Source of the DNA: a virus
Virus record (IMG/VR): IMGVR_UViG_3300020462_000003
Location: 1-64,000 of that record
Length of the DNA: 64,000 nt
Strand: one strand, 5' to 3'
Below are positions 24,626 to 62,450 of the stretch, piece after piece; position 1 is the stretch's first letter, and each line of letters opens with the position of its first letter. The notes below the pieces were generated by a model. It saw nothing but the letters and a program-made list of their open reading frames with translations, made no database searches and was not told the DNA's origin. The position numbers and the translations under genes are program-made.

Positions 24626-27600
24626 TCACTTGATCAGTGAGCTGATCGCCTGGATAGGCAGGGTTTCATCCCACGCATCCAGCATCTTGAAGGCCCCTAT
24701 ATCCAGTGGGTTGCCAAACTGGTTGACTGCAGCCGAGTCAATCAGTGTCTGAGCACCGTCCAGGTAGCCATCAAAGGCCAGCAACATCAGTGCCCGAGCA
24801 GGGTTCTCTTTCATGAGATCCATGATCACATGCTGGATACGCAGGTAGTACTTGGTGAAGTACACCAGACCCATCCTGTTCGCATAGTCGAGCAGTTGGT
24901 GTGACGGCTTGTCGTAGTTCACGAATGCACGCGACACCTTCAACACTGCATCTTCGTGGCTCAGTGGATTCTTCTTCCGTGAAATCAGCTGCTGGTACAG
25001 GGTGTACCTCGCCACGAAGTCCGACACCTGAGTGCCCTGGCTCAATACGCGGTACAACGCTGTGTCATGCGTAACAAAGGCCACCTTCGCAACAGACTTG
25101 AGCGCATCCGGCACACGGTCGGCGTGTTGTTCCAAGCTCTTCACCCAACGTGACTTGTACGAGTAGTCAGAATCGGCAGTGTCCACGTCCTCAACAATGC
25201 TCGACAGCAGTCCTGCTTCGATCAGGGAACGTACCGGGCTTTTAGCCAGTGTGTTCTCCAGTCGAAGAATCTTCTGCTGCATCTCGCGCACATCCCCTAC
25301 GACAGCACCCGAAGCCAGTTGCGCCTGCAAGGCTGACAGTTCGCTCTCGTCCTTCCGATAGTCCAATACCCCCTGCAATGCCACCCAACTGTTCTTGGCA
25401 ATGTCCACAACAGGCACGCCACTGAGCCACAACTGCGTGTAGTTACTGACCACGTTCCATAGCAGCGTCATGCCCGTCTTGACCACCAGAATGTCCTTGA
25501 CCACCCGGATGACCTCCATCCAGCGATCTTCCCCCCGGCGAATCATCAGTGCTGCACGCTTGGCACGATCTTCCAGATCCACACCGGTATGCCCTTCACG
25601 CTTGAGCTGCCAGCGAACCATCAGGTCCGTCATCTTGAAGAACATGTCTTCAGAGAAGTTACGCTGAGCCTCGTCCAGCTCCATGATCTTCGACAGACTG
25701 TAGGCCGAGTAACCAAACGTCTGGTCGTAAATGTCGTTACGGACCATCAGGTTGTCCGACCCCCAAACATCTCTGAGTGCTTGCTTGGAAGCAGGGGGCA
25801 ATATCCGCCAGGTTTCACGGATCGATGCGTCCTTACTGTCAGGGCCAAAAGTGATATACGCATCCGGGTTTTTTGTGTACTCCTGATCGTACTGATCCTT
25901 CAAGGCTTCAAAGGCTTTGCGGTTCTGCTGAGTCACATTGCTCTTGTCGAAGATGTTCGACTCCAACGCACCTAACAGCAGATCAAAGCTGTTGTTGCGC
26001 TCCAGCAGTTGATCCTTCATCTGCTCGCTCATCAGGTAGCGATACCCTGCAGCCTCACCCACGGCATTGATCACCGGAGCCATGTAGACCTTGCTGTCCT
26101 TGCGTGGATCATAATTCGGGTCGATGGGCTGAGCCTGTACAGCACGGGTGATTGCCCGATTGATTCGCGCCGCATGCTTGTCAACGTACCCGTTACGCGA
26201 ATACAAAGGCGCATGCACTTCCGTGCCTTTGTGGTGCTGACCGGTATAGGTCACCACACCCGTCTGGCGATTAGGCAGTCCTCGATCAGTGAGGCGCAGC
26301 AGCACCAGATCCTTGAGTACAACGTCGGTATCGTCCTGTTCCAACGGACCTACCACCTCATACCCCTGAGCCACCATACGCGCTACTTCAGAAGCCGGAG
26401 CGGTGATAATCTCGGTGTGTGGGTTGTACACCTCCGGCAAATACCCTTTCATCATCAGCAACTCACTGTCTTTGAACAGCTTCTCTGCCGATTCCTTTTG
26501 CATGTGACGGTGCAGTTTGAGAATGACCTCGATACCGTTGCCCTTGTCATCCCGTTCAAGCTCTTTACGCATCACCTGGGCGGCCTGCATACGTTGGTTG
26601 GCATCGGTGTATTCAAGCGCGTAGAGCGAAACCAGTGGATCGAGCACCTTGGCAATCTCACGGCCTTCTTCCAGGGAGACCTTGGTGCTGTCCGGCGTAT
26701 TCAGCCGCAAGGCGATACCCAACGCATTCTGCTGAGTGTTGTAGCCCTTGACCTTTACCGCCATCCGGTAGGCCAGTTGCTTGACGCCCTGGATATATGC
26801 GTCCTTGAACGGGCCACTGAGTTGAGCTTCGTACTGAGCTATAGCCTTGTCACGCGCTGCCTTGTCAGTCATCAGATCCAGCAGACCGGCACTGTCAAAG
26901 GGACCTAGCAGCGATTGCATGTCGGTACGCAAAGCCACCTTGGTGACGGCATCCTTCATTCTCTGAGTGAGGTATTCACCGTTCTCGGCAAAGCTGTCCA
27001 GACTCATTTTGGCGAAGTCGGTCTTGATCTTCATCCGCACCGTTTCCAGGAACTTGGTGCTGAGCAGTAACAGATCCGCCACCTTGTTGCCTTCACGCAT
27101 CTCGTTGATCACACCGGCCATAAGACCCAGCTTGCCCTGGTACAGACGATCCCGCAGCACTTTGCCTGCATCTACCAGCTGCCCTACCTGATCATCGACC
27201 GAGGCGGCAGCTATGCTGCTGGCAGCACGCACAAAAGCATTCTTGTGCTGATCCAGCATAGGCGACTCCAGTACCCTGAGTACCTGTTGCTTGGCCTTGG
27301 TACTCACACCGTCCAGGGCGTCTTCCAGTTGCTCACGGGCCGCACCCACAGGACCTGTACGACGGTTCTGTTTGCGGTACTCCAGGTCCACCAAACGTCG
27401 AGCCAGGACACTCAACTTCTCATCGGCCTGTTGACCGCTGTAGACCTTGAACAGGCGATGCTGCAGTGCATCCAGCAGTTGTTCCCACAGCCACTGGATG
27501 CGTTCCCCCAGCTTCATCTGCGACACCTTGCGTGTGTCTTTATCGGTCTCAAAACTCATCTGGTCATGCAACGGCTCCCAGACCATAGCCAGTGCAGCGA

Positions 27601-30600
27601 ACCGAGCCAGGTACTCAGAACCCTGCCCCTTCGAATTAAAGACGTGATCCCACTGCTGGGTATTCAGGGCAGTACGGATGTTCGGGTTACGACGAGCCTC
27701 CTCGTACAGGCGAACCAGCTGCTTGCGTGTGCCTTGAGCTTCGGCACTGTCCAGCGTCTCCTGGAAGGTCAACTGAGCCAGCTCCAAGGCAAAGGTCTCT
27801 TGCTCATTCAGGCCAATGCCTGCTGTAGCGGTATCAGCAGAGAATGGCAGGATGCCGAGCACCTTGGCTTGCATGATCTGCGCGATTGGGTCAGTGGCCT
27901 GAGTGCTTTGCATCTGCGCCTTCAGCACGCCAAAAGGACCCTGCAACCGTGACATGACCCCACTCACCAGGGCTTGCAGACGTGCAGTCTGATCCTGGCT
28001 CATCGGCTTGTTGGCCTGAGCCAATGAATCGAACACCTGCAAGGTATCCATCGCAGCCTGCGACGTGGCTCGTTGACGCAGGGTCAGTCCTGCCTGCTGG
28101 TTGCGGGTCACCCCGGCTTCGTAGAACAAACCAGAGGTATTGGTGATCAGTGCCGTCAGTGCCGAGGCTGCCTGTTCTTTCTCGGTCTTGCTCGATCCAT
28201 TGAAGAGAATGCCCACCACCGAATCGATGAACTTACGCATCGCCTTGATCAATCCGTTCGGGCCTTTACGCTGGCTCTCGAAGGTCATCTTGTTCAGCAC
28301 ATCACGCTGAAAGCCCTGGTTGGTCATGCCCCAGGAAATCAACTCATGGACGTTCTCGATGGCCGGTGCGTAGTTCTGCTGCAGCTGGGCATCCTTGGCA
28401 ATAAACGCTTCGGCCTGCACACGCAGCAGTTCCAGATCATCAATCAGATCCAGGGCTTCACTCTCATGCTCTGGATTGGCTGTGCGTGCAGCCAGTTCTG
28501 CTTCGATGGTCTGAGCCAAGGCACCGTGTACCAGCTCATGCAGCACCAGTTCAGGCGTCAGGTTGCCTACCTGAGAATCGGTGCTACGCAGGTAAATGGT
28601 CGGCGTGCCTCCCTCAGTGGTGAACCAGCCCAGCGAGTTGTCTACATCTTCGCCCTTCAGCTCACTCTTCGGCGTGTTCGGGGTGACGTAGCGGATCTCC
28701 AGTCCAGCATCAACCGTGTTGGCCAACATCTTCAACAGCTTGCGGTTGAGGTTCTGTACCCGTCCTGCAGGCGTGGCCAGCAGTGCCTGTTCAACCAGAC
28801 CAAAGACTTCCTTGGCTGGCATCACCGGCTTGGCTTTCAGGGCTGCTTCCAGGGGAGACAGCTCTTGTGTGTCGTCTTCTTCGACGACCTCTTCCTGAGC
28901 CTCTGCGGCCTTGCCGGGTTGCATCCCTTTCGCCTTTTCAGCCAGCAGCTCAGCAGCGGCCTGTACCTCGGCAGACAACACCGGCTGCAGGGTTTTGAGT
29001 TTGGCCTCGATGGCTTCACGATCCTTATCGGTTACCCGGTACACCCCTTTCTCCAGGGTGTACTGATCCAGGGTATCCACTTCCATCAACAGGTTGAGTT
29101 TGGCCTGGTCAGCGGCGTAGGCACCATACTTGGCTGCATCCAGTACATGCGGAATCAGCCTATCGAAAGGCACACCTTCCACATCCTTATCGAACGCCTT
29201 CTCTATCTGAACGTGGATCTGTCGCAACGCATCCATGTCGAAGGCATCACCTTCGGTCTCGATACGTTCAGCCAACGCCAGTACGGTACGTTCCAGAGCC
29301 TGGTAGGTCTGTTCGGGAATGGAGTAGTTCAGCAACGCCTCGAAGGTGTGTTTGTTCAGGCTGTTGGCACCCTTGACCATATCTTTGAGTGCCAGCCCCA
29401 GAGCGTCATGCACGTTCAAGGCTTCGACCTGTGCGTAGCTGCTCATGGCAATGAAGCTATCCGTACTCTGTACGCTTTTAGCCATACCACTGACGCCAGG
29501 GTCCTTCATCATTTCGGTCATGGCACGCACCTGCATGCGCGGACGACCATTGAAGGCAATCTGCGAGGAGTAGCGTGGATCACTGTTCAAGTGTCGCTCG
29601 GACTGGGTAGCGAAGACTGCGCCTTCTGTACTGCCTGTCTGAGAGCTGGCCGTATGCAGGCGAGGCTCGAAGGCTTTCACCCGCTCACGTAACACCTTGG
29701 TCTGCTCTGCCGTCAGGTCATGCAGCGGAACACGCACTTCATCCTTATTGCGCTTGAAGGCCATCAGCCCTGCATCCATCAGCTCCTCTTCGTAGCGGCC
29801 ACGTTCCAGTGCGTACATCTGGTCGTAGATGGCATACGCCGCCTGCAACGTGTTGTTGATCTGGGTACGTGCCGCCATGAAGTCGCCAAGGTTCTCTTGC
29901 AGAGATACACGGGTGGCCTTGCCCAGCGAAACCTGGAAAGCACCCTTGAACAGGCTGGCTTGCTTGTCGGAGAACTCCCACTCCATCCCCTGCTCCAGGG
30001 TCATGGTTTCAGGGAGCAGCTGTGATTCCAGGAAGTACTTCTGCTTGCTGCTCATCTTCTTGCCCTTGGACATGCCCAGGGTCAGCAGCGCATTGATATC
30101 CCGAACAATCTGCTCCATCGAGTCAGGGGTCTTGTTCTTCTTGGCAGCCAAGGACTCCATTCGCGCATAGACCCGATCCAGGGTCTCTTCCGCCATGGCA
30201 TCCAGTGCGGTGAACACCGATGAGCCGTACATCAGCCCCGTCAAAGGGGTCTTGACCAGGTTACGCGCATCCTTGCTCACCGAGCCGTCTTCTGCCCGCA
30301 GTACGCCAGTAAACCGGTACAGGGCATCGATACCCCCTAGGCCTATGCTGTAGTCGCGATCAGACCATTCTTTAGTGATCTCCTGCATGGAGAACGTCAT
30401 GTCACTGGCCAGAGTCTGGTACAGGTCAAGATTGCCCAAGGCCTTCCAGGCACCAAAGCCCTTCTCGTCCATCGACTTCAGCATGAAGCCCCCTTTGGGA
30501 GCCAGGTTCTGCGTCATGGCACCGAGCAACCACAGGCTCAGCATCGGGCCGTTGGTCTTGCCGTCCACCTCACCCATCATGTGGGAAGTGAATACCTGCT

Positions 30601-33600
30601 TACCGGACTCCTTGGCTTGCAGGTAATCGGCCAGACCCAGCAAGGCATCGAAGCTGTGCATCTTCTCCTTGCCCTTGAGTACACCTGCCAGGATGGCTTC
30701 CTGACTTTCAGGCGTTACCGTCTCATTCCAGATTAGGTCACGGATGGCCTGAGCAGCCGCCCGATAAGTAGGATCGTTCTCGATCGATTCCCACTTGGCC
30801 AGGGTGGCTTCGTCACTTTGCTCGTCGGACTTGATGCCCAGGCCTTCCATTACCCGCAGCTGGAAGTTGATCAGCGATGTGTCGCCTGCACCCTTGCCCA
30901 TGGATACGTTGGATACCCAACCACCCATGCGGGTGACGAAGCGATGCACCTTACTGGTCTGAGGGTTGATGCCGTTTTCCTTGAGCATCACACGCTGGTT
31001 ATTGGACGTGGTAGGCGTCAGATGAAACGGTACATCCAGGGACGCATCGAGCTTGGAGATCTGCTGGAAGAACTCCATCAGGTGAGCAATCTCACGACGC
31101 AGGCCATCGTTCTTCGCTTCCTGGCTCTTGCGGTGAGCCTTGTGAACCTTCGTCTCGTCTACCAACACCACACCTGCGACCTGCTCGAAGACCTCCGGAT
31201 TGAGTAGGGTCACCACCTGCATGGAATCCGCACGCAGGTAACTGGTTCGCTTGGCGACCTTTTTCAGGATCTTCCATTGCAGGTCAGGAGTTTTCTGCAG
31301 TCCTTTTACATGCGTCTCCGGACGCATCTTCGGTGCGGTGAGTGCGGGAAATTGCACAGCCGACTCCACCCCGAAGACCTTGTTGAAGGCGCCTTCTGTC
31401 TGACGGGCCGACTCAACAATCGACTGAGCTTGCTGGTTCAACTCACCATTTTTCGTAACCAGTCGAATGAAGACGTGGTTGCCTGCGTTGTACTCTCGCT
31501 TGTCACGGGAAGCATCAACGACAGCTTTATCGGAGACAGTGGATGCTTCAACAATACCCTGCTCTTCCAGCATGGCCAGCGTGTGAGCACCCAAGGCGAT
31601 GCGCAGCCGATCATGGCTGTCACTAGGCGCATCTTTCTTCAGACGCAGCCCAAGCGCCTGTATAGCCATGTCACCCAGTCGATTAACCACCAGGTTACGG
31701 GTGGTGCCTACATCCGAGAGCAGGCGCATCAATGCAGGTGGGACAGCCAGATCCTGTTTACGCCCGATCTTGGCATTGACGGCTTCTTCGTTATCCAGAC
31801 GGGGCTTGCCGGAGGCTTCCAGAATCCAGCCATAGGCCGATACCGACAGGGCCGTGGCAATGTTCTCTTCCAGGTTCAGGTCATCGTCGTGCAGGAACTG
31901 CATGAAGTCGTAGGCGAAGGATTCGGTAAGGATCTTTCCTTCCTTGTTCTTCATGCGCTTGAGCTGGCCCTGAAGAGTGTCCTGCCAGGCTTCGGCTGCA
32001 ACCACGAAGCGGTTCAGCAAACCATGCTGCTCATCGGTCAGGTCACTGTCGATGAACGACTGGAACTTCGCCTTCCCAGACTTGATCTTGCTCATGAAGT
32101 CGGTGACCGAAGTCAGTGGCTTCTTGGCATGACGCACCTGCTCGAAGTCTTCGGCAACACGGTTCTGTGTGAGGTAGTTGGCTGCTTCAAAGGGTTTGCC
32201 CGAGGCTTCGGCAAACAGCTTCAGACGCCCATCCACCACCGCCTCTTCAAATAGATCCGGCTGAACATCGTCCTGCTTGTCTGCCAACCCTTCCATCCAC
32301 TGCAGGATGCCTGCTGCTTCTTCAGCAGCCAGATCCTGATCGGCGGCCAGCTCATCGATCTTGGCGTCCATGCGTTGCACGAACTCAGGGGAAGCCAGTC
32401 GAGCAATACGCGCACGCACAGGGGCAAAGGCTTCACGGATACTGTTCTCGTTGAACATGTCCGTGTAGAGGTTTTCAGCCGCAGTCTCGCCGTCGTCATC
32501 CAGCTCCTGCGGATTGGCATCCAGTAGCTTCTGGCCTTCAAGCAGACGCTCACGCGCATCCAAGTCGCTGACACGAGCAGCCTGCTCTACGAAATTGGCA
32601 GGCACATTTGCTTCAACTTCCTCGGCTACAGATGCAGGGTCCTGAACAGGTTCACTGGTTGGTTGGGGAATCTCTTGAGGGGCTTCCGCCACCGTAGCTT
32701 GAGCAGGTTCGGCAACCGGCTTGGCGATCTCCTGCCGGGGAGTTTCTGCCACAGTTACAGGCTCAGTCGGTGCAACAACAGCGGGAGCCTGCTTTACTGA
32801 CGAGGTACGCAGCTTGTACAGCGACTTCATCTCATTCAGCAGCGACTTCAGTGCAGCCGCTTCCTTACGGACTTCGTTGATACGGCCTGCCGATGCACGG
32901 GTGACTGTGAATCCACCGGCCTCTTTCATAGCCTTCATGCTCAAGGGTTGCGTGACGGGTCCCCAGTTACCTTCGGCATCCGGCACCACCTGCACACTGC
33001 CACCCTTCTTCTGGATGGCATCCAAGGCACTCTTCAGTGCGGTCACCTTCTTGATGTGACTCGCCGCAAAGTTCTGCAGATCCTTGATCTCTCGACGGGC
33101 CGTCACTTCATCCGGTGTAGTGGCGTTCAGGGCAGAAGTGATCCAGGAACGGTACTGCTTCATTCCCTTGTTCTTGTCCGAACCCAGACGGATCTCGTCG
33201 CTCACGGCACCGAAGTCCTTGAGCTGGTTTTCCGCTACACGACTGGCTGACAGGAATCGCAGATGCTTACGCTGTGCGTCATCCAGTTTGATGGACGGCG
33301 AATTAATCAGGTAATCCAGGGTGCTATCGGTCAGCGCCTCAGGGTTACGCATGGACAAGGTGAACGACTCGGCAACCGCTTTCTCCAGCACAGTCGGTTC
33401 AACAGTATCGGGTGTTTCGATGGCTTGTTTGATAGTGGCCTGAGCGGTCTCAGCTACCTTGCCGGTTACACGCTGCTCGAACTTACGGGCCGTCTCCAAC
33501 TGGGTTTCCAGCGTCTCGACCGCAGTCTTGGCACGCTTACGAGAATCTGCATCCGAACGCACGGCAACACGCTTCTCCAGAGCGGTGATGTACTGGGTGT

Positions 33601-35374
33601 ACTCAGCCACCGTTTCCGTGTCAGCAGGGTCTACGGCCGCCAGTTCGGTCTTGCGCTGATCCAGCTCTGCCTGCATCTCCTGCACCCGTTCAGGGGCGTA
33701 CTCAGCCAGCGTCGCCTTCTTCTTGTCCAGGGATGCCTGCATATCCCCGACCAGGGATACCAGTTCCTGACTCTTGGCTTCCTTTTGTTCTGGAGCCAGA
33801 TCAGCCTTCTCGATGTGACGCATCAGTGCCCGAGCACCCAGCACGGGGTTGTAGGTAGCCGACTCAGGGTTGACCAGCGCCTCTACGTCACCTGTTTCAG
33901 CCGCCTTGTCTGCTGCTTTCTGGGCGTCGTCGTAGCGGGCCAAGGCTTCTTTCTGCTCACGGCTGGCACCGCCCATGACCGAACCCATGGCAGTACCGGT
34001 GACCAGACCCATGGCAGCCGCATTACCTACACCTTCATCGTAGGGACGGTCCAACGCCAGGTTCTGCAGCACCTGCTCGCCTGAGGATTGGACAGCTTCC
34101 TCACCCCCCTCCAGACCTGCAGCGCCTACTGTGCGGGGCACTACCGGTTTGGTGGATGTGCCCAGTGCGCCTTTAACCAGAGCTTCATCCACGTCACCCA
34201 AGCCTGCCTTGTTGGCCAGGCCACCACTGAGACGATTGACCAGCGAACCCATGACGCCTGTACCACCGGCAGCAGCAGTCTGCTTGAGTGACAGCAAGCC
34301 ATCAGCGGTCTGCTGACGGATACCCTCAGCTGCACTGCCTGCCATGACCAGGCCTTCGCCTGCTGCAGCTGCTACCTTGCTGCCTGCACCTAAGGCCTGC
34401 AAACCACGGCCAAACAAACCACCTGCCAGCATGGAGGGGATGGATTCACCCACAGCATGAGGAACAACACTGGGGTTGGCTGCGATCTCTTCCATCGTGT
34501 CCCAGAAGCCTTCGGCCTGACCGACGTTTTCGTCGGCATACCGCTGTTCCCAAGTCTTCAGGGTGTCGAGGAATTCACGAGCCTCCTCAGGACGGAAACC
34601 GGCTTCTTCGAGCGTCTTGCCTGCATGGCCACCCGACACAATGTCAGCCAGACCCACGGCCATCTCGGGAACGCTCACAGCACCCTTGACCGCAGTGACA
34701 GTACCGTCCTGCGTGGCACGGCGCATCAGACTATTGGTTCGCTCTTCCGTCTCCCCCATACCGGCCAGCGAATCCCAGTTGGATAGCTGATCGATCTTCT
34801 CGGAGAAGCCCCGAGCCTTCAGGGCACGTTCCAGTCGATCCAGGTTAGCGGCACCTTCCCTCGCTGGCATCTGGGCAGACCCGAACGTCATCTCACGCTG
34901 GGACAGCAGATCCATATCGGCATCGGTAGCCTGGTTGGTGCGGTAACGGCCATAGGCTTCTTTGGCAGCAGCATCCACCGAGGCTTCCTCGGCAAAGGCG
35001 TACGCATCCAACGGAGCCTGCAGGACATTACCCCCCAGAGCAGCGGCATCCTTGGCGAAGGACGCCAACTGGTTGATCACCATGCCTGGATATCCCTCAT
35101 GATCCAGACCCAACTTACTCACAACACTGTTGGCGTTGGCTTCATCAATGCGACCTTGCCGTTCACGAAACCGACGATTACCGTCGATGATCGATGCCGT
35201 ACGGGTAGCCTCACGCGCTGCCAATGAATTAGGTATCGGCTCCTGGTCCTTCAGCGCACCCAGTACTTGACGCTTTAATTCAGTTGCTTGCGCCAGCTTT
35301 TCCTTTTTAAGTTCGGTCAAGGAGATAGAGCGTAGTTCTTCTGGGAGTTCTGGAAGTTCTGGGAGCTGAGCCAT
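24626..35374 (-). CDS. Virion-encapsidated RNA polymerase (N4 gp50-like)
   Basis: 3582 aa; motifs EVDGKTNGP (A), RNLVKTPLTGLMYGS (B), VHDA (C); no Cys seen on reading. Confidence 0.95.
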   Translation of the reverse strand: MAQLPELPELPEELRSISLTELKKEKLAQATELKRQVLGALKDQEPIPNSLAAREATRTASIIDGNRRFRERQGRIDEANANSVVSKLGLDHEGYPGMVINQLASFAKDAAALGGNVLQAPLDAYAFAEEASVDAAAKEAYGRYRTNQATDADMDLLSQREMTFGSAQMPAREGAANLDRLERALKARGFSEKIDQLSNWDSLAGMGETEERTNSLMRRATQDGTVTAVKGAVSVPEMAVGLADIVSGGHAGKTLEEAGFRPEEAREFLDTLKTWEQRYADENVGQAEGFWDTMEEIAANPSVVPHAVGESIPSMLAGGLFGRGLQALGAGSKVAAAAGEGLVMAGSAAEGIRQQTADGLLSLKQTAAAGGTGVMGSLVNRLSGGLANKAGLGDVDEALVKGALGTSTKPVVPRTVGAAGLEGGEEAVQSSGEQVLQNLALDRPYDEGVGNAAAMGLVTGTAMGSVMGGASREQKEALARYDDAQKAADKAAETGDVEALVNPESATYNPVLGARALMRHIEKADLAPEQKEAKSQELVSLVGDMQASLDKKKATLAEYAPERVQEMQAELDQRKTELAAVDPADTETVAEYTQYITALEKRVAVRSDADSRKRAKTAVETLETQLETARKFEQRVTGKVAETAQATIKQAIETPDTVEPTVLEKAVAESFTLSMRNPEALTDSTLDYLINSPSIKLDDAQRKHLRFLSASRVAENQLKDFGAVSDEIRLGSDKNKGMKQYRSWITSALNATTPDEVTARREIKDLQNFAASHIKKVTALKSALDAIQKKGGSVQVVPDAEGNWGPVTQPLSMKAMKEAGGFTVTRASAGRINEVRKEAAALKSLLNEMKSLYKLRTSSVKQAPAVVAPTEPVTVAETPRQEIAKPVAEPAQATVAEAPQEIPQPTSEPVQDPASVAEEVEANVPANFVEQAARVSDLDARERLLEGQKLLDANPQELDDDGETAAENLYTDMFNENSIREAFAPVRARIARLASPEFVQRMDAKIDELAADQDLAAEEAAGILQWMEGLADKQDDVQPDLFEEAVVDGRLKLFAEASGKPFEAANYLTQNRVAEDFEQVRHAKKPLTSVTDFMSKIKSGKAKFQSFIDSDLTDEQHGLLNRFVVAAEAWQDTLQGQLKRMKNKEGKILTESFAYDFMQFLHDDDLNLEENIATALSVSAYGWILEASGKPRLDNEEAVNAKIGRKQDLAVPPALMRLLSDVGTTRNLVVNRLGDMAIQALGLRLKKDAPSDSHDRLRIALGAHTLAMLEEQGIVEASTVSDKAVVDASRDKREYNAGNHVFIRLVTKNGELNQQAQSIVESARQTEGAFNKVFGVESAVQFPALTAPKMRPETHVKGLQKTPDLQWKILKKVAKRTSYLRADSMQVVTLLNPEVFEQVAGVVLVDETKVHKAHRKSQEAKNDGLRREIAHLMEFFQQISKLDASLDVPFHLTPTTSNNQRVMLKENGINPQTSKVHRFVTRMGGWVSNVSMGKGAGDTSLINFQLRVMEGLGIKSDEQSDEATLAKWESIENDPTYRAAAQAIRDLIWNETVTPESQEAILAGVLKGKEKMHSFDALLGLADYLQAKESGKQVFTSHMMGEVDGKTNGPMLSLWLLGAMTQNLAPKGGFMLKSMDEKGFGAWKALGNLDLYQTLASDMTFSMQEITKEWSDRDYSIGLGGIDALYRFTGVLRAEDGSVSKDARNLVKTPLTGLMYGSSVFTALDAMAEETLDRVYARMESLAAKKNKTPDSMEQIVRDINALLTLGMSKGKKMSSKQKYFLESQLLPETMTLEQGMEWEFSDKQASLFKGAFQVSLGKATRVSLQENLGDFMAARTQINNTLQAAYAIYDQMYALERGRYEEELMDAGLMAFKRNKDEVRVPLHDLTAEQTKVLRERVKAFEPRLHTASSQTGSTEGAVFATQSERHLNSDPRYSSQIAFNGRPRMQVRAMTEMMKDPGVSGMAKSVQSTDSFIAMSSYAQVEALNVHDALGLALKDMVKGANSLNKHTFEALLNYSIPEQTYQALERTVLALAERIETEGDAFDMDALRQIHVQIEKAFDKDVEGVPFDRLIPHVLDAAKYGAYAADQAKLNLLMEVDTLDQYTLEKGVYRVTDKDREAIEAKLKTLQPVLSAEVQAAAELLAEKAKGMQPGKAAEAQEEVVEEDDTQELSPLEAALKAKPVMPAKEVFGLVEQALLATPAGRVQNLNRKLLKMLANTVDAGLEIRYVTPNTPKSELKGEDVDNSLGWFTTEGGTPTIYLRSTDSQVGNLTPELVLHELVHGALAQTIEAELAARTANPEHESEALDLIDDLELLRVQAEAFIAKDAQLQQNYAPAIENVHELISWGMTNQGFQRDVLNKMTFESQRKGPNGLIKAMRKFIDSVVGILFNGSSKTEKEQAASALTALITNTSGLFYEAGVTRNQQAGLTLRQRATSQAAMDTLQVFDSLAQANKPMSQDQTARLQALVSGVMSRLQGPFGVLKAQMQSTQATDPIAQIMQAKVLGILPFSADTATAGIGLNEQETFALELAQLTFQETLDSAEAQGTRKQLVRLYEEARRNPNIRTALNTQQWDHVFNSKGQGSEYLARFAALAMVWEPLHDQMSFETDKDTRKVSQMKLGERIQWLWEQLLDALQHRLFKVYSGQQADEKLSVLARRLVDLEYRKQNRRTGPVGAAREQLEDALDGVSTKAKQQVLRVLESPMLDQHKNAFVRAASSIAAASVDDQVGQLVDAGKVLRDRLYQGKLGLMAGVINEMREGNKVADLLLLSTKFLETVRMKIKTDFAKMSLDSFAENGEYLTQRMKDAVTKVALRTDMQSLLGPFDSAGLLDLMTDKAARDKAIAQYEAQLSGPFKDAYIQGVKQLAYRMAVKVKGYNTQQNALGIALRLNTPDSTKVSLEEGREIAKVLDPLVSLYALEYTDANQRMQAAQVMRKELERDDKGNGIEVILKLHRHMQKESAEKLFKDSELLMMKGYLPEVYNPHTEIITAPASEVARMVAQGYEVVGPLEQDDTDVVLKDLVLLRLTDRGLPNRQTGVVTYTGQHHKGTEVHAPLYSRNGYVDKHAARINRAITRAVQAQPIDPNYDPRKDSKVYMAPVINAVGEAAGYRYLMSEQMKDQLLERNNSFDLLLGALESNIFDKSNVTQQNRKAFEALKDQYDQEYTKNPDAYITFGPDSKDASIRETWRILPPASKQALRDVWGSDNLMVRNDIYDQTFGYSAYSLSKIMELDEAQRNFSEDMFFKMTDLMVRWQLKREGHTGVDLEDRAKRAALMIRRGEDRWMEVIRVVKDILVVKTGMTLLWNVVSNYTQLWLSGVPVVDIAKNSWVALQGVLDYRKDESELSALQAQLASGAVVGDVREMQQKILRLENTLAKSPVRSLIEAGLLSSIVEDVDTADSDYSYKSRWVKSLEQHADRVPDALKSVAKVAFVTHDTALYRVLSQGTQVSDFVARYTLYQQLISRKKNPLSHEDAVLKVSRAFVNYDKPSHQLLDYANRMGLVYFTKYYLRIQHVIMDLMKENPARALMLLAFDGYLDGAQTLIDSAAVNQFGNPLDIGAFKMLDAWDETLPIQAISSLIK

Positions 35375-58214: not shown

Positions 58215-58438
58215 GTATCACCGTCTTGGTGGTTTACCTCTGCACATCTGCTGCCATGGACAACTGTTCCGTCTGGCAAGAAGGCAGCTGGACCGGTGCA
58301 GCAGCACCCATCTACTGCACCGTCGAGCGTGATCTGGCTGAAGCCAGCGTCCTGCCCAATCAATTCATTCGTTACGAATGTGAAACCGTCGAGACCGAAC
58401 AGGTCGCGCGCACCCAACACAAAGGAATAAACCAATGA
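58211..58438 (+). CDS. Small Cys-containing protein
   Basis: ATGA overlaps at both ends. Confidence 0.55.
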   Translation: MSITVLVVYLCTSAAMDNCSVWQEGSWTGAAAPIYCTVERDLAEASVLPNQFIRYECETVETEQVARTQHKGINQ

Positions 58439-58767
58439 AGGTAAAACTCAGCCAAGCACACGACATGATCGTGCAGTGCATCAAGGTCGGCCTGGTCCCG
58501 ATCGTCAAGGGCAGCCCTGCCGTGGGCAAGTCCTCCATCGTTCACCAGATCGCCAAGGAATACGGTCTCAAGGTCATCGACCTGCGCCTTGCTCAGTGCG
58601 ACCCAACCGATCTGCTGGGCTTCCCCAACACTGCCAATGGCCGGGGCCGCTATGTACCCATGGAAACCTTCCCCATCGAAGGAGATGAGCTTCCGAAGGG
58701 CTACGAAGGCTGGCTGTTGTTCATGGATGAGTTCACCAGTGCTCCGCGTGGCGTGCAGGCTGCTGCT
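58435..58767 (+). CDS. MoxR-like AAA+ ATPase (N4 gp24-like), exon 1
   Basis: GSPAVGKS Walker A, LFMDE Walker B; joins exon 2 as VQAAA|YKLVLDR. Confidence 0.9.
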
Positions 58768-59650
58768 TAATTTATAGGCATTCACAGAAGAGACTCTGTG
58801 TCTAAAGCTACTTAAAACGGGAAACTCTGACTAGCTTATATCTGCTTGCACTTAGTTGTGCTTGTTTGTAAGCTAAAGACAATCCGTTGCTAAGTAGGAA
58901 TTGAAATGACTGAAATCTGGAAAGACATTCTTGGATATGAAGAGACTTACGAAGTTTCCAACTTCGGAGGAATCCGTTCCAAGAGCCGAGTAGTCCCTTG
59001 TAAAGGGGGAACTCGTACCGTCAAAGGCCAAATCAGAAAAACCTTTCTGAACAGAAAGGGATATCCAATTACCACGTTGTGTCAAAACAACAAACTGATG
59101 ACATTTACTGTTCACCAGTTGGTAGCTCAAGCCTTTATTCCCGGCTTCATCAAAGGAACGGAAATTAACCATAAGGATGGAAATCCTGGTAACCCTTCCG
59201 TAACTAATTTGGAAGTATCCAACCCATCTCATAATCAGCTACATGCTGTGAGGATGGGTCTGGTCCCTAAACAAGGGATATCCAAATACCGGAACGTGAC
59301 TTATGTGAGTAACCCTCGGGCGAAATATAAGTGGGCGGGATCGGTACGACATGCAGGCAAATCCGTCTTTGGATGGAAAACCTTCATGACTGAGGAAGAA
59401 GCAGCGCGCCATGTTGACTGGTTGCTTGATTCCATTGGAGACACTGACCGGATTCGGAACTTCCCTTCAATTCCTTAAATGCCCAACGACTAGTCCGCTA
59501 TAGGACGTAGGCCCAAGTGGGTCGAAATGGTAGCCCCCCAAACAGGTCAAGCTGTGGGGGTTGATATAGTCTGCTCTGCATAGAAATATGCAGCAGTGAT
59601 GCCTCAGGAACATCACGGGTAAGGCGTAACGCCCCTTACTGAACACAAGG
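58768..59650 (+). mobile_element. Group I intron (IA2-like), 883 nt
   Basis: P1 with U-G at the splice site, 9-bp P10, P3, P4, P6a, P7, P7.1/7.2, P8 and terminal G all traceable. Confidence 0.92.
58906..59478 (+). CDS. Intron-encoded NUMOD4-HNH homing endonuclease with AP2-like C-terminus
   Basis: EIWKDI.GYE..YEVSN.G.IRS; VHQLVA.AF...INHKDGN..N....NLE; SKY.NV...F.TEEEAAR. Confidence 0.9.
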   Translation: MTEIWKDILGYEETYEVSNFGGIRSKSRVVPCKGGTRTVKGQIRKTFLNRKGYPITTLCQNNKLMTFTVHQLVAQAFIPGFIKGTEINHKDGNPGNPSVTNLEVSNPSHNQLHAVRMGLVPKQGISKYRNVTYVSNPRAKYKWAGSVRHAGKSVFGWKTFMTEEEAARHVDWLLDSIGDTDRIRNFPSIP

Positions 59651-60331
59651 TATAAATTAGTCCTGGATCGCATGGTCGGTACTCACACCCTGCACAAGAA
59701 AGTCGCCATCGTCTGTGCAGGCAACCTGGAGACAGACGGAGCCATCGTCGAAGAGATGAGCACGGCTCTGGAATCTCGCTTGGTTCACATGGAAGTCACG
59801 GTGGACCACAAGGACTGGTGTGAAGGATGGGCCATGCAGAACGGCATCGACCACCGCATCACCAGCTTCATCAAATTCAAACCAGGGATGCTGTACACCT
59901 TCAGCCCTGATCACACCGACTGCACCTACGCCAGCCCCCGAACCTGGGAGTTCGCCAACCGCCTGGTCAAGGGCAAAGAGATCGGTATCGACGACATTCC
60001 TCTGTTGGCTGGAACCATCTCCGAAGGCGTGGCACGCGAGTTTCGAACCTTCACCCAGATCTACAGCAACCTGCCCACCCTGACCCAGATGATGGAACAG
60101 GCCACCACGCTGCCGGTGCCTCAGGAACCCAGCATCCTGTTTGCACTGACCGGTTCGATTGCGCACAACGCCAACGATGAGAACGCAGGTCCGCTGATGG
60201 ACTTCGTGTCCCGTCTGCCGATCGAGTTTCAGGTGGTCACCCTGCGTGAAATGGTACGTCGTAGCCCTGCCCTGATGAACCACAAGTCCGTCCAGGCGTG
60301 GATCACCAAGAACGCGAAGGAGCTGTTCTGA
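59651..60331 (+). CDS. MoxR-like AAA+ ATPase, exon 2
   Basis: YKLVLDRMVG...CAGN...MSTALESR...SPRTWE; in frame with exon 1. Confidence 0.9.
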   Translation, partial: YKLVLDRMVGTHTLHKKVAIVCAGNLETDGAIVEEMSTALESRLVHMEVTVDHKDWCEGWAMQNGIDHRITSFIKFKPGMLYTFSPDHTDCTYASPRTWEFANRLVKGKEIGIDDIPLLAGTISEGVAREFRTFTQIYSNLPTLTQMMEQATTLPVPQEPSILFALTGSIAHNANDENAGPLMDFVSRLPIEFQVVTLREMVRRSPALMNHKSVQAWITKNAKELF

Positions 60332-60914: not shown

Positions 60915-61091
60915 ATGCTCGTATTAACCCGCAAGGCAGGTCAGGCAATTCACATCGGCGACAACATTGTTGTTCGTATTCTGGGTTATCAGAACGGTCA
61001 CTTCCGCGTGGGCATTGAAGCCCCCAAGGACATTGATATTCAACGGGACGATATGAAGAATCCAAAAAAGCCGGAAGTTGTCAGTGAATAG
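60915..61091 (+). CDS. csrA: CsrA/RsmA-family RNA-binding protein
   Basis: MLVLTRKAGQAIHIGDNIVVRILG......RVGIEAPKDIDIQR; 58 aa, below the ORF track cutoff. Confidence 0.9.
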   Translation: MLVLTRKAGQAIHIGDNIVVRILGYQNGHFRVGIEAPKDIDIQRDDMKNPKKPEVVSE

Positions 61092-61343: not shown

Positions 61344-62450
61344 ATGTCATTGCAAGATGCCAACAAGGCTCTCGATAAAGCCAAGATCGGTCTTATGAGT
61401 AAGCCTGATAGTGCTTTCTTTACCACCCTCTGTCTTTCGTTTCGTCATCTGTTTGACGAGACCATTCCAACTGCGTGTGTGTCCGATACCGAGATCCGGA
61501 TCAACCCGCAGTTCTTCCTTTCGCTCTCCGATCAAGAGCGGATATTCGTCCTGGTGCATGAGTGCATGCACCCTGCCCTGATGCACACCGTGCGTCGAGG
61601 GGATCGTGATCCCGTGAAGTGGAACATCGCTGGCGATCACGTCATCAACCTGATGCTGCTGGATCGTGGCTTCAAGATGCCTGATTGGGTACTCAAGGAC
61701 CGTCAGTACCAGGGGATGAGTACCCTGCAGGTATACGACCTGTTGCCGGATGATCCCCAAGCACCCCGCATGCAGGACTTGTCGCCCAGCTCTCAGTCTC
61801 CCGAGGAGCAACAACAAACCGAGCAAAACATCACCGATATCGTCATGCGTGCTGCTACGCAGTCGGCGATGAGTGGAGATACACCAGGCACCATTCCAGG
61901 TGATATCCAGATCTTCCTGGATGAATACCTCAACCCCATACTTCCATGGGACAAGTTACTACGGAAGTTCTTCAATCAGTTCGCCAAGACGGACTACACC
62001 TGGAAGCGTCCTAATCGCCGTTTCATGCCTGAGCATATTCTCCCAACACTTTACGGCATCACCCTCGGTGAAATAGCCGTTGCCGTTGATACGTCTGGTT
62101 CCGTCAGTGACGCAGACTTCCATCGCTTCATCAGTGAAGTAAATGGAATCATGAAGAAGTTGAAACCCTCACAAATAACCCTGTTGCAGTTTGATACCCG
62201 CATCCATAAAAAGGATGTACTCAAAAGTGTATCTGACTTAAATCAGGTCACGTTCCACGGACGTGGGGGTACGAATGTTTCAGAAGTAATCCAGTGGGCC
62301 AGAGACAACAAGCCAGTTGCACTCTTGTTATTCAGCGACGGTGAATTCAGGCATGTAACGCCTGCACCGAAGTGTCCGGTATTGTGGGTTATCCACAACA
62401 ACAAAAAGTTTACTGCCCCCTACGGGAAAGTTATCCACTACAACATCTGA
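61344..62450 (+). CDS. DUF2201-type metallopeptidase with vWA domain (N4 gp25-like)
   Basis: VHECMH, WNIA.D..IN, AVDTSGS MIDAS, GRGGT, FSDG. Confidence 0.88.
   Translation: MSLQDANKALDKAKIGLMSKPDSAFFTTLCLSFRHLFDETIPTACVSDTEIRINPQFFLSLSDQERIFVLVHECMHPALMHTVRRGDRDPVKWNIAGDHVINLMLLDRGFKMPDWVLKDRQYQGMSTLQVYDLLPDDPQAPRMQDLSPSSQSPEEQQQTEQNITDIVMRAATQSAMSGDTPGTIPGDIQIFLDEYLNPILPWDKLLRKFFNQFAKTDYTWKRPNRRFMPEHILPTLYGITLGEIAVAVDTSGSVSDADFHRFISEVNGIMKKLKPSQITLLQFDTRIHKKDVLKSVSDLNQVTFHGRGGTNVSEVIQWARDNKPVALLLFSDGEFRHVTPAPKCPVLWVIHNNKKFTAPYGKVIHYNI

Follow-up and report, generated by a model that had tools for sequence, protein, structure and literature searches.

A predicted mobile group I intron and its HNH endonuclease gene in the AAA+ ATPase gene of an N4-like phage

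Three consecutive open reading frames (ORFs) at 58435-60331 of a viral genome raise the question of whether three genes lie here or a single gene in pieces. The sequence analyzed, hereafter the window, comprises 64,000 nucleotides (nt), positions 1 to 64,000 of the 74,266-bp IMG/VR virus record IMGVR_UViG_3300020462_000003, and belongs to an N4-like phage. The ORFs encode a 111-amino acid (aa) piece with Walker A and Walker B motifs, a 190-aa NUMOD4/HNH protein and a piece readable from 59651, and gene callers render the locus as these three ORFs, as an initial annotation made from the sequence alone had remarked. That annotation proposed that a group I intron, self-splicing and with an HNH ORF, splits a MoxR-like AAA ATPase gene of an N4-like phage. 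The proposal stood with respect to the intron, its ORF and the host gene (gp24-like, and probably MoxR-like), on the basis of exon collinearity, covariation of the core helices, a specific though below-threshold match to the Rfam group I model RF00028 and homology to I-HmuI; the word "self-splicing" we can keep only as an inference. With high confidence we assign 58768-59650 to the mobile group I introns, as a member of the phage IA (T4 td/nrdB-like) type that lies in a gp24-like AAA+ ATPase gene.

The interrupted ATPase gene

The locus was resolved into the following parts:

58435..58767, plus strand: exon 1 of the ATPase gene (gp24-like, AAA+); 111 codons with Walker A and Walker B, ending ...VQAAA; matches PHROG 1297 positions 7-119 (E 5e-39)
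58768..59650, plus strand: predicted group I intron of IA (T4 td/nrdB-like) architecture; 883 nt, opening with an in-frame TAA stop and closing with a terminal G; not present in close relatives L018-L020
58906..59478, plus strand: putative homing-endonuclease gene within the intron, in the P6a loop; 190 aa, NUMOD4 and HNH_3 domains, I-HmuI-like; stop codon at 59476-59478
59651..60331, plus strand: exon 2 of the ATPase gene; 226 codons and stop, starting YKLVLDR; matches PHROG 1297 positions 120-353 (E 3e-78); 59651-59659 is the P10 partner

Excision of the 883 nt joins the 3' end of exon 1 (GCTGCTGCT at 58767) to the 5' end of exon 2 (TATAAATTA from 59651) at the nt junction GCTGCT-TATAAA, and yields a 337-codon ORF reading ...VQAAA|YKLVLDR..., which agrees with the in-frame fusion to YKLVLDRMVG and the 337-aa length given in the initial annotation. 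The insertion site lies between codons Ala111 and Tyr112, in the conserved VQAAA|YKL motif just 3' of Walker B, and the PHROG 1297 ATPase profile is divided between the two exons at the same point. The strongest support for this junction comes from three close relatives among the IMG/VR contigs (L018, L019 and L020), in which a single uninterrupted 337-codon gene aligns over residues 1-337 with the predicted spliced product at 93-96% aa identity. The predicted product is also gapless end to end against the genes of distant N4-like phages. With vB_SalP_TR2, KpCHEMY26 and Vibrio 1.026.O, all of them intron-less, tblastn comparisons gave exon matches that abut to the base, exon 1 ending exactly at residue 111 and exon 2 beginning at its residue 1; VQAAAYKL is a contiguous conserved motif in these phages, across which the TR2 and Vibrio 1.026.O ATPases align gap-free. 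The collinearity with intron-less gp24 homologues at AAA|YKL, for which the initial annotation had proposed an alignment, was borne out both by abutting coordinates and by the uninterrupted genes of close relatives.

Exon 1 by itself scored 18.3 bits against Pfam AAA (cut-off 21.2), and the intron-less TR2 homologue scored 24.3 bits against AAA_5 (cut-off 22). The G+C content is ∼57-60% in both outer pieces versus 40-46% in the 5' two-thirds of the insert (∼58700-59400), rising again to ∼50% over the 3' ribozyme core. The chief value of the finding lies in annotation, the correct product of the locus being a 337-aa protein joined at GCTGCT-TATAAA, not three ORFs.

Ribozyme fold and endonuclease gene

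Introns at the same nt site, GC[T/C]GCT|TA ... [A/G]GG|TA, were found in Klebsiella phage Pylas, Escherichia phage Pollock, Vibrio phages JA-1 and pVco-5, and the IMG/VR contig 3300045135_001981 (L013). Compensatory changes among these same-site introns are noted in the list of modelled elements below, where MFE denotes the minimum-free-energy fold:

58764..58780, plus strand: P1 hairpin; UGCU|UA (58764-58769) with guide sequence UAGGCA (58775-58780), 6 bp, U58767·G58777 wobble at the 5' splice site; in the MFE fold
58768-58776 with 59651-59659, plus strand: P10; exact reverse complement, 9 bp; 58768-58776 partly shared with P1
58783-58788/58795-58800, plus strand: P2 hairpin; compensatory changes in 5 of 6 pairs, 36/36 cells canonical
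58807-58812/59529-59534, plus strand: P3; 36/36 cells canonical, 3 compensatory pairs
58816..58888, plus strand: P4-P5 domain; P4 58816-58820/58884-58888, J4/5 GAAAC, P5 58826-58828/58877-58879, P5a 58832-58838/58869-58875, J5/4 CAAU; 1 compensatory pair each in P4 and P5; distal hairpin on P5a of varying length among homologues; in the MFE fold
58889-58890/59481-59482, plus strand: P6; 1 compensatory pair
58896-58905 (AGGAATTGAA)/59466-59475, plus strand: P6a; perfect 10 bp closing the ORF loop, 6 compensatory pairs
59483..59571, plus strand: catalytic core, from the RF00028 alignment; J6/7 CCAAC, P7 59488-59492/59567-59571, P3' 59529-59534, J8/7 UUGAUA 59561-59566
59493-59496/59503-59506 and 59510-59514/59519-59523, plus strand: P7.1 and P7.2; 3 compensatory pairs each
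59535-59540/59555-59560, inner 59543-59545/59552-59554, plus strand: P8; in the MFE fold
59576..59650, plus strand: P9 region; P9 59576-59582/59587-59593 with GAAA loop, P9.1 59596-59601/59611-59616 and P9.2 59619-59624/59634-59639 (4, 4 and 5 compensatory pairs), 3' tail, terminal G at 59650

All modelled pairs in the window intron are canonical. The elements named in the initial annotation were recovered throughout: the P1 pairing of UGCU|UA with UAGGCA, with its U-G wobble at the cut, is present in the sequence and in the MFE fold, 58768-58776 is the exact complement of the start of exon 2, the terminal G stands at 59650, and the P3, P4, P7 and P8 pairings are present, all with compensatory changes in the homologous introns. 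The chance of a 9-bp P10 at a fixed position is ∼4e-6. Besides this combination of P10 and terminal G in the window, the same-site homologues all end in ...AAGG or ...AGGG, and the P1 wobble, the guide sequence TAGGCA and the exon sequence TGCT|TA are conserved in the six same-site introns. Unconstrained MFE folding of the 5' half returned P1, P2 and P4-P5a (z -3.6), and that of the 3' half returned P7 enclosing P7.1, P7.2 and P8, plus P9 (z -2.8).

Covariation was counted on ORF-deleted cores, using a MAFFT global-pair alignment and a manual structure. Across the six same-site introns, 378 of 415 cells in 71 pairs are canonical (91%) and 41 pairs are changed on both sides, compared with 35-40% canonical cells and 4-10 both-side-changed pairs when the 3' partners were slid by 1-3 columns. 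Each of the helices P2 to P9.2 contains one or more compensatory pairs; in P7, for example, GACUA/UAGUC of the window corresponds to GACCA/UGGUC in L013. An RNAalifold consensus of the ORF-deleted cores was set aside in favor of the manual structure, as it wrongly paired the guide sequence with P7', and an initial alignment of the 3' domains, in which P7.2-P8 of JA-1 and pVco-5 were misaligned, was not used for the pair counts.

The presence of P7.1 and P7.2 between P7 and P3' marks subgroup IA, to which we provisionally assign the intron from its anatomy rather than from a subgroup-specific model. The IA2 introns of T4 td and nrdB and of RB3 nrdB are group I introns that likewise reside in phages, contain P7.1/P7.2 and loop an ORF out of P6. 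Over 36 nt, the J8/7-P7'-P9 stretch shares 92-97% identity with introns of T4-like nrdB (RB3, 92%), of T7-like DNA polymerase genes and of others. The T4 introns differ in host gene (nucleotide metabolism versus an AAA+ ATPase here) and in enzyme, with the GIY-YIG endonuclease I-TevI in place of an I-HmuI-like HNH protein. The internal loop between P6 and P6a (58889-58895/59476-59482, GCUAAGU versus UAAAUGC) is conserved in the same-site introns; by eye it resembles an 11-nt tetraloop-receptor, with the P9 GAAA loop (59583-59586) as a candidate partner.

The intron ORF is full length with an intact HNH motif, and matched Pfam NUMOD4 (E 1.3e-14, 54.6 bits, cut-off 23.4), HNH_3 (E 5.8e-6, 26.3 bits, cut-off 24.8) and PHROG 59, HNH endonuclease. 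Its homology to I-HmuI of the SPO1 DNA-polymerase intron (PDB 1U3E, E 5e-12) predicts a strand-specific nicking HNH enzyme, and we regard the product as a putative I-HmuI-type homing endonuclease whose activity and specificity are presumed from this likeness; the SPO1 intron differs in host gene, phage family and target site. The Shine-Dalgarno sequence AGGA of the HNH gene lies within the P6a stem, which ends one base before the ATG and whose 3' strand ends at the stop codon, and related introns maintain the pairing over it through compensatory changes. The stem probably restrains HNH translation from the full-length pre-mRNA. The ribosome-binding sites of T4 intron ORFs are sequestered, and burial in P6a agrees with this.

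In the mechanism that we propose, the pre-mRNA would fold into P1-P9.2 and an external guanosine would attack after U58767, at the U·G wobble of P1. The freed exon 1, aligned with exon 2 through the 9-bp P10, would then be ligated after G59650 to give the mRNA for the 337-aa ATPase, while translation of unspliced RNA would halt at the intron's opening TAA. The NUMOD4/HNH enzyme predicted to be encoded in the P6a loop, with its ribosome-binding site buried in the stem, would presumably nick or cut intron-less alleles of co-infecting relatives, and repair would copy the intron together with short flanking exon sequence.

Same-site relatives, mobility and alternative readings

A megablast search of the region against GenBank phages returned nothing, and relatives surfaced only with sensitive blastn or tblastn. 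The intron of Pylas (MH899585, Pylas_035/036; Schitoviridae) occupies the identical site, GCTGCT|TA...AAGG|TATAA, is ∼68% identical to the window intron over 93% of its length, and has the same helices and a homologous HNH ORF (63% aa identity) in the same loop. Its GenBank record notes "HNH Intron splits the protein; ATPase split by intron"; in the announcement of the Pylas genome the intron goes unmentioned. The host phage is a different one, the window capsid protein being nearest to Pseudomonas LUZ7-like phages (71% identity), and the Pylas ORF extends into P7, whereas the window has a longer P5 extension and a longer P10 (9 bp). The insertion site and ribozyme are likewise shared by Pollock, JA-1/VCO139, pVco-5 and the contig 3300045135_001981, whose records lack an intron annotation. 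Pollock and JA-1 differ further by an additional intron, which interrupts the Walker A codons, and the HNH of JA-1 is shorter and divergent.

Several observations point to mobility. The ORFs of the same-site introns are 60-68% identical in aa sequence to the window HNH in phages whose ATPase exon 2 identity is only 32-41%, as expected for horizontal spread. At the insertion site the window reads GCT|TATAAATTAGTC versus GCC|TACAAGCTCGTG in its intron-less close relatives (L018-type sequence around the site, GCTGCTGCC|TACAAGCTC); 6 of 13 nt differ, all synonymously, compared with ∼92% identity in the rest of the gene. The window version corresponds to the flanks of the other intron-bearing phages and provides both the U required at position -1 and the partner strand of P10. 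These six synonymous differences point to acquisition by homing, and would fit co-conversion, with selection for splicing acting either later or at the same time. A 97% identical relative, L017 (IMGVR_UViG_3300011802_000007), lacks the codon 111/112 intron and has one at codon 59/60 instead (∼1441-2338); over 75 nt the P8-P9 region of that intron matches the window intron at 94.7% identity, a likeness that hints at module exchange between introns at different sites. Near-identical relatives in this lineage have no intron, the window-site intron or a different-site intron, and are a natural set on which homing and co-conversion of N4-like phages could conveniently be studied. This presence/absence polymorphism and the cluster of synonymous changes lend indirect support to site-specific cleavage or nicking of the intron-less allele by the putative enzyme.

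Certain results weigh against the identification of the insert as a functional group I intron. The whole window gave no match to Rfam at the gathering score; a scan with group I models of the Infernal type, which the initial annotation had suggested, matched RF00028 below threshold only, on 59414-59593 in the permissive setting (E 0.0084; E 1.3e-4 genome-wide). This sole match reached 20.9 bits versus a 50-bit cut-off and covers the 3' half only. The covariation comes from our own alignment and structure of six sequences, which favors the model somewhat, and JA-1 misfits the P4/P6 part. The 9-bp P10 is peculiar to the window, its homologues retaining 3-5 bp, and splicing is deduced from DNA sequence. 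We attribute the low score to two features that break the model, the 573-nt ORF within P6 and the lengthy extension of P5; RF00028 also matched Pollock's same-site intron in two halves, of 33.5 and 28.9 bits. The match in the window aligns P7, P3', P8, J8/7 and P9, and is specific despite lying below threshold. No intron besides 58768-59650 was found in the genome-wide RF00028 scan, and a search with the J8/7-P7' motif GATATRGTC for any further intron gave one other site only, at chance level (29375, minus strand), inside the 3582-codon ORF at 24626-35374 (minus strand) that fits the giant virion RNA polymerase.

Could the HNH gene instead be free-standing, with no splicing and the halves 58435-58770 and 59672-60331 translated separately and reassembled as a split ATPase? 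For such an arrangement the nrdA gene of Aeromonas phage Aeh1 is reportedly a precedent, and it would be consistent with the three called ORFs, with the ATG at 59672, 7 codons into exon 2, and with the Pollock and JA-1 records, which annotate the pieces as separate genes. A start at 59672 would, however, remove the conserved YKLVLDR segment, the stop TAA falls exactly at the junction with the ends U|...G|, and the non-coding sequence that flanks the ORF, ∼310 nt in all, preserves a complete group I fold supported by 41 compensatory pairs, which would be purposeless without splicing. We consider this arrangement extremely improbable. Hardly more probable is an intron of group I descent that is decaying or cofactor-dependent, splicing inefficiently by itself or needing a protein helper, in an ATPase that is poorly made or dispensable. 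The low Rfam score would suit such decay, as would the ability of close relatives to manage without the intron and the fact that gp24 is not known to have a defined function in N4-like phages. Against it stand the intactness of all core helices and of the conserved J4/5, J6/7 and J8/7, the full-length ORF with its HNH motif, the exons, 92% identical in nt sequence to those of intron-less relatives and free of disabling changes, and the synonymous changes beside the insert, which suggest recent gain over old decay. Readings of the insert as an intein, a group II intron or a free-standing homing-endonuclease gene were rejected, given the stop codon at its start and its group I fold.

Other insertion sites and neighboring genes

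The mobile group I intron of the window occupies one of four to five insertion sites in the gp24-like ATPase gene, four with intron evidence and the fifth from a break in the protein alignment alone:

Walker A, GSPxx|GKS: Pollock (ORF-less intron, RF00028 101 bits); JA-1 (52 bits)
Codon 59/60: ZC03; phi 1; L017
About codon 98: NAN33P5, a tblastn break only, without ribozyme evidence
Codon 111/112: the window intron with those of Pylas, Pollock, JA-1, pVco-5 and L013
About codon 208-215: pYD6-A; NAN33P5 (35.6 bits)

The record of pYD6-A joins its ATPase across the intron at that other site. In Pollock (L002, KM236242) the ORF-less group I intron at 779-1131 splits the Walker A codons, GSPGI|GKS, where a 28-aa "hypothetical protein" is listed in the record alongside ATPase fragments entered separately.

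Splits of this gene have been reported before. HNH genes splitting the gp24, DNAP and gp43 homologues were described in JA-1, with introns suggested (Fouts et al. 2013, PMC3670811), and a homing endonuclease was found to split the ATPase of ZC03 and ZC08 (Amgarten et al. 2017, PMC5418858). The view of the initial annotation that an AAA chaperone gene is an unusual host for a phage group I intron was not supported, given these reports, the four to five insertion sites in this gene, the intron annotated at the same site in Pylas, and those present in Pollock, JA-1, pVco-5 and the IMG/VR contig. The window intron is an ordinary mobile element of a kind already known, and adds nothing new in kind.

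With considerable doubt, we raise the possibility that the gp24-like ATPase gene of the Schitoviridae is a multi-site intron hotspot, that its introns move between lineages infecting Pseudomonas, Escherichia, Klebsiella and Vibrio, and that the HNH enzymes may be weapons between co-infecting N4-like phages (marker exclusion) and not purely selfish. Such a role has reportedly been shown in recent work on the intron of a jumbo phage.

Two genes downstream of the ATPase were also noted. The gp25-like partner gene at 61344-62450 (plus strand), a VWA-like neighbor of the ATPase, encodes DUF2201_N (putative metallopeptidase) and DUF2201/VWA-like domains; the PHROG name of its family (phrog_1314) is "HNH endonuclease", a label repeated in several RefSeq records that is probably a propagated misannotation. 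Between the two genes lies a 58-aa ORF (60915-61091, plus strand) that matched Pfam CsrA (PF02599, E 6.9e-19, 68 bits, cut-off 27), and whose predicted product looks like a phage-encoded CsrA/RsmA-like regulator.

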